A stretch of DNA of 64,000 bases from ANME-2 cluster archaeon. GTDB lineage: Archaea > Halobacteriota > Methanosarcinia > Methanosarcinales > Methanocomedenaceae. The notes under the pieces are model-generated. The model worked only from the letters and a program-made list of their open reading frames with translations. It had not been told where the DNA came from and did no database searches. Each line of letters opens with the position of its first letter. The stretch's first letter is position 1. Shown here piece by piece: positions 14,755 through 22,768 of the stretch. A program made the position numbers and the translations under genes. Location: the NCBI GenBank assembly GCA_023544605.1, contig JAMJFQ010000001.1, positions 6,410 through 70,409 on the forward strand. The letters are read 5' to 3'.

Positions 14755-16542
14755 GTGATCTTAGTGAGGATAGCCATAGTTAACAAGGACAGGTGTCAGT
14801 TTAAGAAGTGCGGGCTGGAATGCATTCATTTTTGTCCCAGGGTGCGCACCGGGGACGAGACCGTGGTGCAGGGCGAGGACGGCAAAGCCGTGATATCAGA
14901 GGAACTGTGTGTGGGTTGCGGTATCTGCATAAAAAAATGTCCCTTTCATTCGATCATGATCATAGGACTTCCCGAAGAACTGGATACTCCTGTACACAGG
15001 TATGGTGTCAACGGGTTCGCGTTGTACGGGCTGCCCACTCCGCTACAGGGCAAGGTCACGGGTATCCTGGGTCCCAATGGAGTGGGTAAATCCACAGCTG
15101 TCAACATCTTAAGCGGCATCATGATGCCCAACCTGGGCAAGGATGATACCACCTGGGACGAAGTACTGGAGATATATTCGGGCTCGGGTATGTATGAATA
15201 TATGAAAGCTCTCTCAGAAGGTAACATCAGAGCCTCCCATAAACCCCAATATGTCGATAACATTCCCAAGGCTGTGAAAGGCAAGGTATCAGAACTGCTC
15301 GATAAGACCGATGAGCGTGGCATTATGGCCGAGCTGGCAGCCAAGCTTGAGATAGAGTATGTGCTGGACAGGGAGATTAAAGACCTCTCAGGAGGTGAAC
15401 TTCAAAGAGTAGCCCTGGCTGCCTGTGTAAGCCGGGAAGCCGATTTCTATTTTATAGACGAGATAAGCCCATATCTGGATATATACCAGCGTATTAATTC
15501 GGCCCGTATCATACAGGACCTGGCAGATAACAGTGCAGTAATGGTAATAGAACACGACCTGGCCCTGTTGGACCAGCTGGCCGATACCGTACATATAGCC
15601 TATGGCGTTCCTACCGGTTATGGTGTTATCACCCAGCCAAAAGGTGTGAGGGTGGCCATCAACCAGTATCTGCACGGCTTTTTAGCAGAGGAGAATGTAC
15701 GTCTGCGCACCGAGCCTATCAAGTTCGAGGAACATCCGCCGCGGGAGCAAAAAGATATACCTACTTTGCTTGAATTTGGCAGGTTCACCAAGAAATTTGG
15801 CAAAGACGGATTCGAACTGGTGGTGGGAAGCGATACGTTAGGCAATGAAATAAAAAAGGGCGAAGTCATAGGTATTGTGGGGCCGAACGGGATAGGTAAA
15901 TCTACGTTCGTCAAGATACTGGCTGGTGAAGAATCACCCACTACAGGCAGTCTGGAGACTGACCTTACCATAGCGTACAAACCCCAGTACCTGAAAGGAG
16001 ATTATCCTGTTAAGGTGCGGGACTTCCTACGTGGTATCAACACCAAATTCGATGCCAGTTATTACCAGACCGAGATAATCAAACCGCTCCAGCTGGACGG
16101 CCTTATGGATAGGATGCTTACCGAACTCTCGGGTGGTGAATTACAGCGTGCTGCCATTGCTGCCAGCCTGGGTAAAACCGCTGATCTGTATATATTTGAC
16201 GAGCCCAGTGCCCACCTGGATGTGGAACAGCGTGCCCTGGCCACCAGGGTTATCCGCAGGTTCGCTGAGAACAATAATGTGACTGCCATGGTAGTGGACC
16301 ATGATATTTATATGATCGATATGCTATCCGAACGGCTTATAGTGTTTGAGGGACAACCTGCAATAAGAGGTGAGGTTCACGGCCCCTTTAATATGCGAAA
16401 GGGGATGAACCTGTTTTTGAAGAACCTTAATATAACCTTCAGGCGAGACGACGAAACACGCCGGCCCAGGGTGAATAAATCTCATTCCAAACTGGACAGG
16501 CAACAGAAATCGATGGGTGAATATTATTACACATTAGAATAG
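14755..16542 (+). CDS. abcE1: ABCE1 / RNase L inhibitor-type ribosome recycling ATPase
   Basis: N-terminal Fe-S motifs CQFKKCGLECIHFCP and CVGCGICIKKCP. Two ABC domains (GPNGVGKST, GPNGIGKST; LSGGELQR twice). An alternative GTG start at 14764 is possible. Confidence 0.92.
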   Translation: MILVRIAIVNKDRCQFKKCGLECIHFCPRVRTGDETVVQGEDGKAVISEELCVGCGICIKKCPFHSIMIIGLPEELDTPVHRYGVNGFALYGLPTPLQGKVTGILGPNGVGKSTAVNILSGIMMPNLGKDDTTWDEVLEIYSGSGMYEYMKALSEGNIRASHKPQYVDNIPKAVKGKVSELLDKTDERGIMAELAAKLEIEYVLDREIKDLSGGELQRVALAACVSREADFYFIDEISPYLDIYQRINSARIIQDLADNSAVMVIEHDLALLDQLADTVHIAYGVPTGYGVITQPKGVRVAINQYLHGFLAEENVRLRTEPIKFEEHPPREQKDIPTLLEFGRFTKKFGKDGFELVVGSDTLGNEIKKGEVIGIVGPNGIGKSTFVKILAGEESPTTGSLETDLTIAYKPQYLKGDYPVKVRDFLRGINTKFDASYYQTEIIKPLQLDGLMDRMLTELSGGELQRAAIAASLGKTADLYIFDEPSAHLDVEQRALATRVIRRFAENNNVTAMVVDHDIYMIDMLSERLIVFEGQPAIRGEVHGPFNMRKGMNLFLKNLNITFRRDDETRRPRVNKSHSKLDRQQKSMGEYYYTLE

Positions 16543-16977: not shown

Positions 16978-17613
16978 ATGAGTCTGAAAAAACTTATTCC
17001 AGGAGCATTAACGATACTTACATTGATATTTTTTGCAATTGGATTGATAACATCAGTGACGAGCACCATCATTATTGAAGAGGACTGTAATGAATGTCAT
17101 GATCGTGAATTTGGTCAATCAGCAGAAATTCATGTTGAAGGCGGTCTTATGAACCGTGATTGTACCAACTGTCATGAAAGTATTGAGATCTCACATGGTG
17201 GGTTTGAACTTGATGAATGTGACCACTGCCATTCTACTGATAGGGGTATAACAATGGCCTATACCAAATGTAGCAATTGCCATGCAAGAGACCCTCATGA
17301 GGAAAAGATGTCCACTAATGAATGTATGACATGTCATTCCAAATGTTCCACATGCCATCATGTCTCACAAACCACGGTAATCCAGGGTAGGCATGAAAAT
17401 CTACAGTGTGAAGGCTGCCACATATATCACCTGTACAGGCCCCAATGCATAAGTTGCCACATGAATGCGATCGGATTACATGAGAACATCACCGATGTGA
17501 GTTACAGTACCAGGACATGTATCTCATGCCATGGACCTGCACACAATTCGACATACGCCCAGATTAATGAGGATGTACAACGGGAGTATACCTGGCATTA
17601 TACTGAAGTTTAG
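16978..17613 (+). CDS. Multiheme c-type cytochrome, 9 CxxCH motifs, N-terminal membrane anchor/signal
   Basis: 211 aa. I count CNECH, CTNCH, CDHCH, CSNCH, CMTCH, CSTCH, CEGCH, CISCH, CISCH. The N-terminal hydrophobic helix is ALTILTLIFFAIGLITSV. Confidence 0.9.
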   Translation: MSLKKLIPGALTILTLIFFAIGLITSVTSTIIIEEDCNECHDREFGQSAEIHVEGGLMNRDCTNCHESIEISHGGFELDECDHCHSTDRGITMAYTKCSNCHARDPHEEKMSTNECMTCHSKCSTCHHVSQTTVIQGRHENLQCEGCHIYHLYRPQCISCHMNAIGLHENITDVSYSTRTCISCHGPAHNSTYAQINEDVQREYTWHYTEV

Positions 17614-17639: not shown

Positions 17640-18746
17640 ATGGTTGATATGAGAAAAGTGATCGTTACAATTATTATGCTGGTTTTTGTGTTAGTCGCAA
17701 CCCAGGTGTTTCTGGATGCAGCTAATTATGTAAGACACAACAGTTTTTGTAAGTTTTGTCATGAAAGTGAATATGATTCTTATTACGACCCAGGAGATTC
17801 ATTGGATTACGCTCATTCACATTATGACATTTCATGCGCAGGATGTCATGAAGGACATGACCATGTAGCATTTACCTATTCAATTTCTAAAATGATGATC
17901 CTTGATGTGACGGGTGGCTCAACTCCCCCCCAATCCGATGACGATGTTGTATTGGAGAACAAGGAACGATGTCTTGTTTGCCATGAGAATTACAAGATAG
18001 TATTGTCTGAACGTCTGCTTAACCCCCATGCAAATGTAACCAATTGTGCTTCGTGTCATTCAGGCCACACCAGGGGAATGGATGAAAATACATGCGCAGG
18101 GTGCCATCCAGTGCCCTATAATTCACTGGAGGGGGAAGGCGGGAAGCATTCCAAGAAAGGATGCGAGTTCTGTCATCAATCCCATGGTTATATCATGGAA
18201 TGTGAACAGTGTCATGGTTCTTTCCACCAGGGCGTATTTGTGGATTGTGGTGAGTGCCACACTGATGCCCATAAACCTACTGATATAGAATTTACTGATG
18301 TGGCAATAGAGAAGAGCCTATGCATCAAATGTCATACTAATGTCAATGTAACTTTCACTATCAACCCATCGAAACATGCAAACCTGGACTGTATAATGTG
18401 CCATCCATCCCATGGCCAGAAACAACAGTGTTCCAAATGTCACAGGCCTCACGGAGAAGAATCGACCCAGGCAGATTGTTTTGTTTGCCATCGAGGCCAT
18501 ACTCCCAGGGATGTAAAATATTCGGGTAGTACTCCGGCAACATTATGTCTTGAGTGTCACGAGCAGGCAGGGAATACGTTATTGAACAGCAACACGAAAC
18601 ACACTACTATGGCTTGTGTCAAATGTCACCCGAACCATGCCCAGGTTCCCAGTTGCATGGACTGTCATGGAACACCGCACACCAGCACTACTACCGATTG
18701 TGAACGTTGCCACATTTCAGCGCATGAACTGTGGATAAAAAATTAG
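17640..18746 (+). CDS. Multiheme c-type cytochrome, 16 CxxCH motifs, with NapC/NirT-like membrane-anchored N-terminus
   Basis: 368 aa. I count 16 motifs: CKFCH, CAGCH, CLVCH, CASCH, CAGCH, CEFCH, CEQCH, CGECH, CIKCH, CIMCH, CSKCH, CFVCH, CLECH, CVKCH, CMDCH, CERCH. An N-terminal TM helix (VIVTIIMLVFVLVATQVF) is followed by NSFCKFCHESEY. Confidence 0.9.
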   Translation: MVDMRKVIVTIIMLVFVLVATQVFLDAANYVRHNSFCKFCHESEYDSYYDPGDSLDYAHSHYDISCAGCHEGHDHVAFTYSISKMMILDVTGGSTPPQSDDDVVLENKERCLVCHENYKIVLSERLLNPHANVTNCASCHSGHTRGMDENTCAGCHPVPYNSLEGEGGKHSKKGCEFCHQSHGYIMECEQCHGSFHQGVFVDCGECHTDAHKPTDIEFTDVAIEKSLCIKCHTNVNVTFTINPSKHANLDCIMCHPSHGQKQQCSKCHRPHGEESTQADCFVCHRGHTPRDVKYSGSTPATLCLECHEQAGNTLLNSNTKHTTMACVKCHPNHAQVPSCMDCHGTPHTSTTTDCERCHISAHELWIKN

Positions 18747-18759
18747 GAGAGATAAGTAA

Positions 18760-18999
18760 ATGATACCCGATATTTTAAAATCAGATGTGATCTTGTATTA
18801 TTTAGCTGCATTCCTGGGTATAATCTCCATGTCAATGTTGCTGATATTTGTTCCTTTTAAGTCGGTAGCTACTTTGATGATGATGGTATCCGGATTAGGG
18901 ATATTGGGCCTAGGGTTAATGGTCCTGTTCATAGCAATCCTGTGGGACTTAAAGAGGCAGTATCTCGATAAGGAGCATAACACCATTCATCGTGATTAA
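18760..18999 (+). CDS. Small hypothetical membrane protein (two to three helices)
   Basis: 79-aa ORF starting 13 nt after the 16-heme cytochrome stop, with a GGAGAG-type RBS upstream. Strongly hydrophobic (ILYYLAAFLGIISMSMLLIFV; MMMVSGLGILGLGLMVLFIAILW). Confidence 0.45.
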   Translation: MIPDILKSDVILYYLAAFLGIISMSMLLIFVPFKSVATLMMMVSGLGILGLGLMVLFIAILWDLKRQYLDKEHNTIHRD

Positions 19000-19900: not shown

Positions 19901-22768
19901 CTATGATGCCTCATTTTTGCACTGTATACTTTCTAAGATTTCCTGTGCACTAGTTTCATCGATATTTACAAGCCAGGAAGTGTAGAGAATATCATTTTCA
20001 TTACAGAACCATGAAAATGCATAATTGTAATTTCCGTTACCAGAGGATGTTTTTACTTTATACCCCCAGTCGAAACCATCCATCATAACTTCTCCTTCTT
20101 CCAGTAATGCGGTTTTTGCATTGTCTTTCATGTTTAGTATGATATTCTCTTTTTGCTCGATGCTAAACGGGAGGTCAGGAAGTGGAATTGCAAGGATTGA
20201 GAACTGCGAATGGTCTTGAGTGTAAAAAGCTTTCATGAAGACATTGCGTGTACGGTGGTCAACATTGATCTGTGCAACATTTTGAGTCCATGTTCTATCA
20301 AGTCCTATAGTGCAATCAATAAAATTCAATTCGATATGGTCATCGTATCTTTTGGTCAAATTCGTAAACGGTGGAGTGATGATCTGATCAAATCTATCAT
20401 TCACGTATTCACCAAGCGCATCCAGGGGTTTATCTGTATTTTGATAGTAAATCGTATTTCTTGCAGTTGTAAATTCAAGAATTGGGTGGTCGTCAGTATT
20501 GATCGTGTTACCGGCAAATTCCTGTACGCTCTTGTCTGATAACCTGTAAGGGACGATCATCTGGTATAATAATCTGTATTTACCTTGTGTCACAAGCACA
20601 TCAGACATCATTTCAAAGTCAGACCTGATATTAGTATTTGAAGCTATATGGTCCCTTATTCGACCGTAATCATATTCAATCGGTTCTGTTGAGCCAACAA
20701 TGACTGCATCGTAACCTACTATCCAGAGTGCAGTGTGCGGGAAAACGCTCTCAAAGGTTGCAAGGAAAATCTTGAAATCTTCGTTGTCCGTTTCATAGAG
20801 CGGTATCCACTGGCAGAAAATGCCTCCTCTTTTTAGATCATCCTTTGCAATTTCATACATCTCTTTTGTAAACAACCCACCTTCACCACTGAGCCAGATA
20901 TTTGATGGTTGAGAGATGATCACATCATATTTTGTATCTTCGGATGCAAGAGTATTCCTGGCATCGTCAATAATAAGATTGATCCTGGGGTCATCCAGTG
21001 CATTGTTGTTATGGGAAGAGAAATGTTCTTTTGTTACATCTATTATGCGGGGATTGATCTCAATTATGTCGATCGTCTTTATCTCGTCGAAATTCGTAAT
21101 GGCGTCCAGTGTAAAGCCGCCACCAAGACCTATGAGCATAACATCATCTATATTGGATCTCGCAAATAATGGTATGTAGGCGATCTGGTATTCAGTAACA
21201 AGTTCAATGGGAACATCGCTTGATTCTGATTTACCATCAATCCTGAGCGCGATATATTCATCTTGTTTAACAACTGATACCAAGCCGTATAATCCTTCTT
21301 CGTAATGTATGAGCTCTATGGAATCTTTTGAGTATTTCCAGGCTTCAACATCAGGCATTTGGGTACCATGATAGTATGCACCCGCAAAGAGCGGATTTAT
21401 TGTTACCGTTGCAAGGTAAATGCAGAGTAAGATAGATGATGCTGCAAGTGGGTAGAATTTTGTCTTCCATTTTTGTTCAGAGTTGGTAAAGATCAGTAAT
21501 GCGATGATAATACTGATCGCAGCACCAATGGCACCCGTTTTTGTGATGCCGATAGTGGGGATCAAAATAAAGGTTGCAAAGAATGTACCAAATATCGCGC
21601 CAAAGGTATTTGTGGTGTATATAACGCCAATGTCTGTACCTACACATTTGAACTTTTTGGATATGATCCTGCTGACAATGGGCATGGTTGTGCCCATGAG
21701 TGTTGTGGGGATCAGTGTGATCAGGAAGATCACAATAAGTAAGGATATAATAAAGGGATAGAATGAGTTGAAATTATGATAGAGCGTAAGGTAGAGGGTG
21801 TCAAGTTTATCGATGAAAAAGAGCATAAAGATCACAAAGAGGCCTATCCCAAGTTCGATAAAAGCAAAGGTCGTGATCGGGTAATTGATCTTGTGCATGT
21901 ACTTACTCATTATAAAACTGCCAATAGAGAGTCCTATGAGGAAGGATGCAGTGATAATGGAAAGTGCATATATGCTTGTGCCGAAAGTGAGGGATAAGAA
22001 TCGGATCCAGACAATTTCTGCACTTAGAGCGGCAAAACCTGAGAGGAAAAAGGCCAGAAATACTACCCTTTCGGTCTTATCAAGGCCGCTGTTTATTATT
22101 TTACCATTTGTTTTTCCATTTCTATTCGTATCAGGAATACTCCAGTCGAAATCCTTGCATATTGTATAGAGGTAAATGCCTAACAATATGTTAATCGAAG
22201 CTGTTAACATAATGGTCTTGTTTATCCCTATCGCAGGCAGAAGTATGAAACCTGCTCCAAGAGCGCCTATAGCAGCAAAGATAGTGTCAATGGAATATAC
22301 TATTCCAACGTCTTCTCCTATTGTTTTTATCCTATGGGCATAGATACGGTTCATGATCGGGAATGAACCTCCAATTAAACTTGTAGGTATGATCAGGACA
22401 ACGAATGACAGGACAAAGAGCATGATGCTCATAAAAGGAGTGGCATGAAAAACATCATGGATCAATACATACGGTATTGGAAGCAGTTTAAACATGAGAA
22501 TAACGAAAAGTGCGGATATACCCAATGCTGTCGTGACATATGCTAACAACCTGACAGGGTTTCTGCTTTTATCTGCATATTCACCCAGTACATAGCTTCC
22601 AAGTGCAAGCCCTGCCATGAAGCAGGAGATTACAGCTCCGGTTGCCTGTATGGATGTACCGAATACGTAGGAAAAATTCTTTATCCAGCTTATTTGGTAG
22701 ATCAGCGATGCCATATTTATCATGGCAAAAACGAGCAGGATTAGTCTAACGTTTTTCATTTTCCACAC
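19901..22768 (-). CDS. Polytopic membrane protein fused to a spermidine-synthase-like (class I MTase fold) domain plus an unknown C-terminal domain
   Basis: 955 aa. The first ~460 aa are stacked hydrophobic helices. The middle carries VMLIGLGGGFTLDAI...IDIIEINPRIIDV...IIDDARN...YDVIISQPSNIW (SpeE-like). The last ~230 aa have no motif I recognise. An alternative ATG start is at 22759. Confidence 0.8.
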   Translation of the reverse strand: MWKMKNVRLILLVFAMINMASLIYQISWIKNFSYVFGTSIQATGAVISCFMAGLALGSYVLGEYADKSRNPVRLLAYVTTALGISALFVILMFKLLPIPYVLIHDVFHATPFMSIMLFVLSFVVLIIPTSLIGGSFPIMNRIYAHRIKTIGEDVGIVYSIDTIFAAIGALGAGFILLPAIGINKTIMLTASINILLGIYLYTICKDFDWSIPDTNRNGKTNGKIINSGLDKTERVVFLAFFLSGFAALSAEIVWIRFLSLTFGTSIYALSIITASFLIGLSIGSFIMSKYMHKINYPITTFAFIELGIGLFVIFMLFFIDKLDTLYLTLYHNFNSFYPFIISLLIVIFLITLIPTTLMGTTMPIVSRIISKKFKCVGTDIGVIYTTNTFGAIFGTFFATFILIPTIGITKTGAIGAAISIIIALLIFTNSEQKWKTKFYPLAASSILLCIYLATVTINPLFAGAYYHGTQMPDVEAWKYSKDSIELIHYEEGLYGLVSVVKQDEYIALRIDGKSESSDVPIELVTEYQIAYIPLFARSNIDDVMLIGLGGGFTLDAITNFDEIKTIDIIEINPRIIDVTKEHFSSHNNNALDDPRINLIIDDARNTLASEDTKYDVIISQPSNIWLSGEGGLFTKEMYEIAKDDLKRGGIFCQWIPLYETDNEDFKIFLATFESVFPHTALWIVGYDAVIVGSTEPIEYDYGRIRDHIASNTNIRSDFEMMSDVLVTQGKYRLLYQMIVPYRLSDKSVQEFAGNTINTDDHPILEFTTARNTIYYQNTDKPLDALGEYVNDRFDQIITPPFTNLTKRYDDHIELNFIDCTIGLDRTWTQNVAQINVDHRTRNVFMKAFYTQDHSQFSILAIPLPDLPFSIEQKENIILNMKDNAKTALLEEGEVMMDGFDWGYKVKTSSGNGNYNYAFSWFCNENDILYTSWLVNIDETSAQEILESIQCKNEAS

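Follow-up and report, generated by a model that had tools for sequence, protein, structure and literature searches.

How electrons pass from reduced methanophenazine or menaquinol to the extracellular cytochromes of anaerobic methanotrophic archaea (ANME) is an open question, and a multiheme cytochrome gene of an ANME-2 cluster archaeon bears directly on it. The window analysed here is a stretch of 64,000 nucleotides (contig JAMJFQ010000001.1 of assembly GCA_023544605.1, positions 6,410 to 70,409 of the forward strand). At 17640..18746 (+) it carries a gene with an ATG start, encoding a protein of 368 amino acids that is identical to NCBI MCL7414464.1 ('cytochrome c3 family protein [ANME-2 cluster archaeon]') and possesses 16 CxxCH motifs, 32 Cys and 35 His by regular-expression count. 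Comparative genomics of ANME has put forward Mco, a VhtC-type cytochrome b with a multiheme cytochrome of 7 or 11 hemes, as a candidate methanophenazine:cytochrome c oxidoreductase in ANME-2a/b/c and has found nothing equivalent, and no identifiable pool oxidase, in ANME-3; small anchored cytochromes were considered able to act like CymA, none being implicated by homology (PMC9012536). No homolog of CymA or NapC in ANME is reported in the searchable ANME genomics literature. A sequence-only reading of the window had proposed that the 16-heme protein joins a quinol-dehydrogenase head of the NapC/NirT/CymA type to a long heme wire. We find that the head is a NapC/NirT/NrfH homolog, a relationship that holds at the level of the protein family and is borderline for the window protein alone.

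The beginning of the protein has the layout expected of such a head. Residues 7-24 read VIVTIIMLVFVLVATQVF, with R5 and K6 before them, and residues 34-45 read NSFCKFCHESEY, which includes Cys37, Cys40 and His41 of heme 1; the open reading frame (ORF) and the count of its heme motifs confirm the claim that a single transmembrane (TM) helix is followed by this heme-1 site on a 16-heme cytochrome. The heme-1 motif itself (C37-K-F-C40-H41, 17748..17762 (+)) is preceded by an invariant F36 and followed by E42-S43. The corresponding regions are EEFCISCHEM in Escherichia coli NapC, TEFCVSCHSM in TorC and PFCTSCHIM in Desulfovibrio vulgaris NrfH. The (E/D)FCxSCHEM-type pattern ascribed to the site stands in part: the FCxxCHE resemblance is present, but Ser43 stands where the pattern has Met, at the second position past the heme-1 His. 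The Cys residues of hemes 1 and 2 are separated by 29 residues, compared with 30 in NapC, 29 in TorC and 23 in NrfH. The tetraheme head covers residues 1-145 (17640..18074 (+)) with hemes at C37, C66, C111 and C136, and the conserved H59, H130 and H143 are its probable distal ligands.

Homology of the head was judged against PF03264 (Cytochrom_NNT), which has a gathering threshold of 24.1 bits. Taken by itself, the window protein is borderline, scoring 20.7 bits at full length and 22.4-23.7 bits as the head alone; the NCBIfam models of NrfH and NapC also match it weakly, and a single-sequence phmmer search of the PDB yielded no meaningful NrfH match (E 4.7, misaligned), so that profiles alone succeeded. 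The PF03264 match nevertheless keeps its register all the way from the TM helix to heme 2 (positions 9-81 against residues 7-79). Thirteen ortholog clusters, with identities of 44-82%, have the head and all 16 heme sites in common, and the ortholog with 82% identity is already named "NapC/NirT family cytochrome c" by NCBI. Eight orthologous heads score 26.4, 25.3, 22.6, 32.7, 21.8, 27.9, 23.2 and 29.4 bits, and a 16-heme relative from Methanocellales reaches 42.1 bits. By this measure the earlier assignment falls just short for the window protein and succeeds for five of the eight orthologous heads, and it is carried further by a profile built from 12 family heads (residues 1-150). The top PDB match of this profile is D. 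vulgaris NrfH (2J7A_C, E 7e-4; profile 15-143 against NrfH 21-140), in an alignment that is collinear through the TM helix and the four heme motifs. Run exhaustively with HMMER against 1.84 billion representative proteins, the same profile returned 186 matches at E <= 1e-3, and 80 of the 99 that were scanned are PF03264 members (best E 8e-33). Finally, hhalign comparison of the family heads with NrfH, E. coli NapC, TorC and 23 canonical heads gave a probability of 99.5% and an E of 7e-23.

The predicted structure of the head points the same way. An AlphaFold2 (AF2) model built on the deeper alignment (predicted local distance difference test score, pLDDT, 89.7; predicted template modelling score, pTM, 0.77) has a long helix at residues 4-30 (17649..17729 (+)) and an amphipathic helix after heme 2 at residues 75-91 (17862..17912 (+)), the latter bearing T79, K84, M85 and D89. 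The quinol site of NrfH is framed by two helices, its TM helix and an amphipathic helix after heme 2, and the two helices of the modelled head are their counterparts. A model of the full 16-heme protein from an alignment of 12 sequences was discarded for its pLDDT of 46.

The remainder of the protein, residues ~146-368 with hemes 5-16 (18075..18743 (+)), is a module with relatives of its own. Of 107 more distant homologs compared with it by BLAST, 76 have ~260-310 amino acids, a classical signal peptide and precisely 12 CxxCH motifs. They are encoded by Desulfobacterota, Nitrospirota and allied groups, and their alignment to residues ~145-368, collinear over the 12 heme motifs, shows 33-38% identity (E down to 1e-36). 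Closest among the stand-alone versions are archaeal ones (P0017-19, one of them from a Methanosarcinaceae metagenome-assembled genome, MAG), with 279-284 amino acids, 45-48% identity, a lipoprotein-like N-terminus and 11 hemes. In the PDB, the full-length family profile matches MtrA (6R2Q_A, E 9e-7) and the dodecaheme GSU1996 (3OV0_A, E 2e-4), and the NCBIfam DmsE decaheme family matches the window protein far below its cut-off. Judged by its homologies, the protein consists of two fused modules, a four-heme NapC/NirT head and a 12-heme chain, and the fusion is considered real because each half has free-standing relatives. The idea that one polypeptide leads all the way "to the outside" finds no support, as no S-layer or cell-surface domain is present in the protein.

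The residues around heme 1 are where the family departs from its relatives. Positions were mapped onto NrfH, NapC and TorC with a MAFFT alignment of 123 heads and an hhalign alignment, which agree, and counts refer to 12 family members and 108 related NapC/NirT-like heads. The conserved distal His61 of NrfH corresponds to His59, which is invariant in the family and is His in all 108 related heads. Met is never found in the family at the column of NrfH Met49 (S/R/A/I/K/G/V occur), a column that holds Met in NapC, TorC, NrfH and 69 of the 108. At the column of NrfH Lys82, which equals CymA Lys91, Lys is kept by eight of the 12 members, the subgroup of the window protein has T/T/L/T, and 44 of the 108 related heads have Lys or Arg; K84 of the window protein, five residues after Thr79, aligns with NrfH R88. 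The column of NrfH Asp89 is Met in every family member, Glu or Asp in 69 of the related heads and Met in five, all with at least 10 hemes. A near-invariant Asp of the 16-heme family, Asp89 in its own numbering, sits one helical turn past Met85. From these positions we infer that heme 1 has His41 as its proximal ligand and Met85 on its distal side, either as ligand or as cap. The canonical site is probably ancestral and the Met85 state derived, because the Methanocellales 16-heme relative keeps the CHIM motif and the Glu. Two simple rules were rejected. A strict swap of Met, in which loss of the Met after the heme-1 His covaries with Met at the Asp89 column, is contradicted by three related heads with both and many with neither, and Lys82 does not serve as a marker of menaquinone versus methanophenazine, since it occurs in Methanoperedenaceae and in paralogs of ANME-3 and ANME-2.

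Two variations of heme motifs were seen among the orthologs. In P0011 (L005:1524-2645; L013, Methanoperedenaceae UBA10536) the heme-2 motif is C-T-A-Y-H, with the second Cys changed to Tyr; either the heme is held there by a single thioether bond or the assembly is wrong. The last motif, C-E-R-C-H in the window protein, is C-G-x-x-C-H in orthologs of the ANME-3/Methanoperedenaceae type (P0006-P0011), and a strict regular expression counts 15 hemes in these because of this CX3CH variant.

The distribution of the family was examined in one genome per GTDB species. Eight loci were found: in one ANME-2 cluster MAG, in one Methanosarcinales MAG with two paralogs, in four Methanosarcinaceae MAGs, of which HMMV2 and B4-05 belong to ANME-3/Ca. 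Methanovorans, and in one Methanoperedenaceae MAG. The Methanocellales relative, also from a MAG, has 36% identity over its full length. ANME-2 MAGs hold two paralogs, the window type with Thr79 and a 9-heme neighbour, and a Lys-retaining type (P0012) represented by MCL7414598.1, a protein of 373 amino acids from the same MAG series as the window, and by the locus L012 in CSMAG_1931, which has no 9-heme neighbour. In the window, the 9-heme gene (16978..17613 (+), 211 amino acids) lies upstream of the 16-heme gene by 26 nucleotides and is the only other ORF with at least two CxxCH motifs. The gene pair is conserved in loci of ANME-2, ANME-3 and Methanoperedenaceae, and the 9-heme partner is missing at the HMMV2 locus and at the P0012-type locus examined. 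The 9-heme protein has a conserved 'RKLIPGxL' start and an N-terminal hydrophobic helix of its own, with heme 1 ~8 residues after it, and its matches in the PDB and Pfam are generic c3/c7 ones only.

Taking head, chain and partner together, we tentatively propose, at a little short of an even chance, that the 16-heme protein is a CymA/ImcH-like entry point from the membrane carrier pool to extracellular electron transfer. As a type-II anchored protein, it would hold heme 1 at the outer face of the cytoplasmic membrane by its single TM helix. A reduced carrier, methanophenazine in ANME-2 and ANME-3 or menaquinol in Methanoperedenaceae, would be oxidized beside heme 1 with release of protons outside, and the electrons would run down the 16-heme chain into the pseudoperiplasm and on to the co-encoded 9-heme cytochrome, to large S-layer cytochromes, or to both. 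Of the proposal that a quinol-dehydrogenase head has been fused to a long heme wire, homology and fusion hold; oxidation of the carrier, including methanophenazine, is plausible and is weakened by the altered site. In a broader form, the proposal would make the window protein the first member of a family associated with ANME (ANME-2, ANME-3 and Methanoperedenaceae) and made up of NapC/NirT-derived, single-polypeptide carrier:cytochrome c oxidoreductases, in which the heme-1 Met has moved from the proximal side to the distal helix (His41/Met85) and which supply the missing step from methanophenazine or menaquinol to the extracellular network, above all in ANME-3, which lacks Mco. In all its parts together this is unlikely. 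The three groups nevertheless share a genuine NapC/NirT/NrfH homolog with a 12-heme chain joined to it, which offers a concrete gene for expression and testing, and the unusual remodelling of the heme-1 site, with Met gone on one side and an invariant Met on the other, presents spectroscopy and mutagenesis with a clean target.

The proposed role presupposes that the N-terminal helix is kept. In the alternative case it would be a Sec signal peptide that is cleaved off, leaving a mature 16-heme cytochrome that is soluble in the pseudoperiplasm and has heme 1 at a distance from the membrane. The positively charged n-region (R5, K6) would suit such a peptide, and classical signal peptides direct the secretion of many homologs of the C-terminal module; the sole possible cleavage site, L25-D26-A27|A28, is weak, and its small-x-small pattern is not conserved among orthologs, which have QSG|M, NVA|L and KIG|W there. 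The helix, with an uncharged core of 19 residues (7-25), matches the NrfH TM helix and the N-terminus of PF03264 position by position in the alignments. The AF2 model (pLDDT >95 at residues 4-30) keeps it continuous up to four residues before F36-C37, running into heme 1, and ImcH, a relative, has been shown by experiment to retain its N-terminus. Cleavage is thus very improbable, and the evidence favours a predicted uncleaved anchor that places heme 1 at the membrane surface.

An anchored protein need not itself oxidize the pool. It may be a membrane-tethered relay whose head is an evolutionary remnant serving as anchor and first four hemes. Its electrons would then come from a different pool oxidase (Mco, the Lys-retaining paralog or Rnf-associated cytochromes) and be passed outward with the 9-heme partner; we regard this as doubtful but a possibility of real substance. 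The points that weigh against pool oxidation by the window protein lie chiefly in the site itself, where all three NrfH residues are lost throughout its subgroup and, in the window protein, exchanged as follows: Met49, the proximal ligand in CxxCHxM, for Ser43, the quinol-binding Lys82 for Thr79, and Asp89, quinol-binding at the distal heme-1 position, for Met85. Lys91 is essential in CymA (PMC2762525), and W. succinogenes NrfH requires the corresponding Lys. Ligation by Met85 might close the site and make heme 1 a plain hexacoordinate His/Met electron-transfer heme. The actual pool oxidase might be the Lys-retaining paralog, which is present in the same MAGs, or Mco, already proposed to oxidize reduced methanophenazine in ANME-2a/b/c (PMC9012536). 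The surroundings of the cytochrome pair are also of a housekeeping kind (ABCE1, a ribosomal protein operon), and no cytochrome b, NrfD-like or iron-sulfur partner was found near the 16-heme gene at the locus. On the other hand, the TM helix, the short link to heme 1, F36, H59 and the Met/Asp face of the amphipathic helix are conserved in the orthologs more strongly than a tether would need, and fewer than half of the NapC/NirT-like heads have Lys or Arg at the Lys82 column. The altered residues are compatible with pool oxidation: CymA works as a menaquinol dehydrogenase although it lacks Met49 and Asp89 (PMC3279761), and menaquinol analogues still interact with ImcH, whose residue at this distal position is Gln. 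Homology does not establish the function, least of all for the window copy, which lacks the Lys. Alternatively, the same head and wire might carry electrons from outside to the pool, or serve the reduction of soluble or solid acceptors (metals, humics) instead of syntrophic methane oxidation. NapC/NirT relatives work in both directions, and for ImoA of Sideroxydans a role in reducing the pool while Fe(II) is oxidized has been proposed; a homolog is encoded in a MAG of Methanocellales, a lineage not known to be methanotrophic, and Methanoperedenaceae reduce metals. The distribution, however, is dominated by ANME lineages with a net outward flux, and no context genes indicate another substrate, which makes this alternative improbable.

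The neighbourhood contains some further features. Downstream of the 16-heme gene by 13 nucleotides lies an ORF of 79 amino acids with two hydrophobic segments (18760..18999 (+)); it has no Pfam match and adjoins only the orthologs with 82% identity (L001-L003), being absent from the Methanoperedenaceae and ANME-3 loci. In two Methanosarcinaceae loci of the ANME-3 type (L009:2533-3558 (-) and L015:1999-3024 (-)), a secreted cytochrome of 341 amino acids and 11 hemes is encoded in divergent orientation just upstream of the 9-heme/16-heme pair, and this three-cytochrome cluster is absent from the window. The ABCE1 gene (RNase L inhibitor-type, 14755-16542 (+)) is listed with a GTG start. Genes of ABCE1, AA-kinase, EMC6-like and ribosomal proteins are syntenic between the window and the ortholog loci, so that housekeeping genes surround the cytochrome cassette. 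A gene at 19901-22768 (-) in the window, with the DUF1805 gene on one side and the ribosomal-protein operon on the other, encodes a 955-amino-acid fusion of a multi-TM region like that of the major facilitator superfamily with a spermine/spermidine synthase domain (PF07690 and PF01564). Because the syntenic loci L001-L003 carry a small Zn-ribbon gene in its place, close genomes seem to differ here by an insertion or a loss. Scans for sigma-70 promoters (11 against 9.5 in shuffled sequence) and intrinsic terminators (1 against 2.1) showed no difference, the models used not covering archaeal promoters.

Among known systems, D. vulgaris NrfH (PDB 2J7A/2VR0) is to our knowledge the only NapC/NirT-family quinol dehydrogenase with a solved structure. 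Like the window protein it has one N-terminal TM helix, four CxxCH hemes in the same order with heme 1 ~10 residues past the helix, a distal His (H61, equal to H59) and an amphipathic helix after heme 2. Unlike it, NrfH carries only four hemes and docks onto NrfA, Met49 ligates its heme 1, and Asp89 and Lys82 stand at the quinol site; the window protein has Ser43, Met85 and Thr79 there, a heme 4 with His candidates of its own, and 12 further hemes fused to the head. CymA of Shewanella and NapC and TorC of E. coli are membrane-anchored entry points from the pool to the periplasm and share with the window protein the F-C-x-x-C-H-E start of heme 1 and a heme 1 to heme 2 spacing of 29-30 residues. 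CymA resembles it also in lacking Met49 and Asp89, whereas NapC and TorC have an acidic residue (Glu and Asp, respectively) at or near the column of Met85. These proteins differ from it by having four hemes (five in TorC), by keeping the Lys (K91 in CymA) and by delivering electrons to separate soluble partners rather than a fused wire. ImcH of Geobacter sulfurreducens comes close in other respects, as a NapC/NirT-derived head with extra hemes and a non-canonical distal heme-1 residue (Gln179) that serves as an entry to extracellular electron transfer; it is bacterial, however, with seven hemes, three TM helices and a retained Lys (K173), compared with one TM helix, 16 hemes and Met in the window protein.

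The same architecture of head plus wire is found in archaeal proteins named 'NapC/NirT family cytochrome c', namely MDI6888738.1 of Methanocellales (370 amino acids, 16 hemes) and UZE92253.1 of Methanosarcinales (321 amino acids, 12 hemes); the former keeps the canonical CHIM and Glu, both of which the ANME family has swapped. By description, GAH_01256 of Geoglobus ahangari is built likewise; it is a predicted decaheme protein for which the role of a quinol dehydrogenase supplying Fe(III) reduction has been put forward. The C-terminal module is like the MtrA/DmsE decahemes and the GSU1996 dodecaheme 'nanowire' in its densely packed chain of CxxCH motifs, but those proteins are soluble or porin-inserted and have no membrane head, and the similarity is low and partly compositional. 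Mco is comparable in its proposed role, the transfer of electrons from reduced methanophenazine to periplasmic hemes; it is unrelated, has several subunits with cytochrome b in the membrane and is absent from ANME-3, whereas members of the 16-heme family are single polypeptides and occur in ANME-3. Of 104 related heads that lie at the N-terminus of their protein, 41 are in proteins with at least 10 hemes, some with up to several dozen. A NapC/NirT head with a long wire is therefore an already known kind of protein, common in metagenomes and experimentally unexplored, and annotation pipelines already label the orthologs NapC/NirT; together with the absence of the CymA-essential Lys from the window copy, this tempers the claim made here. 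What is specific to the 16-heme family is its architecture of four plus 12 hemes, its remodelled heme-1 site, its ANME-centred distribution and its conserved 9-heme partner.

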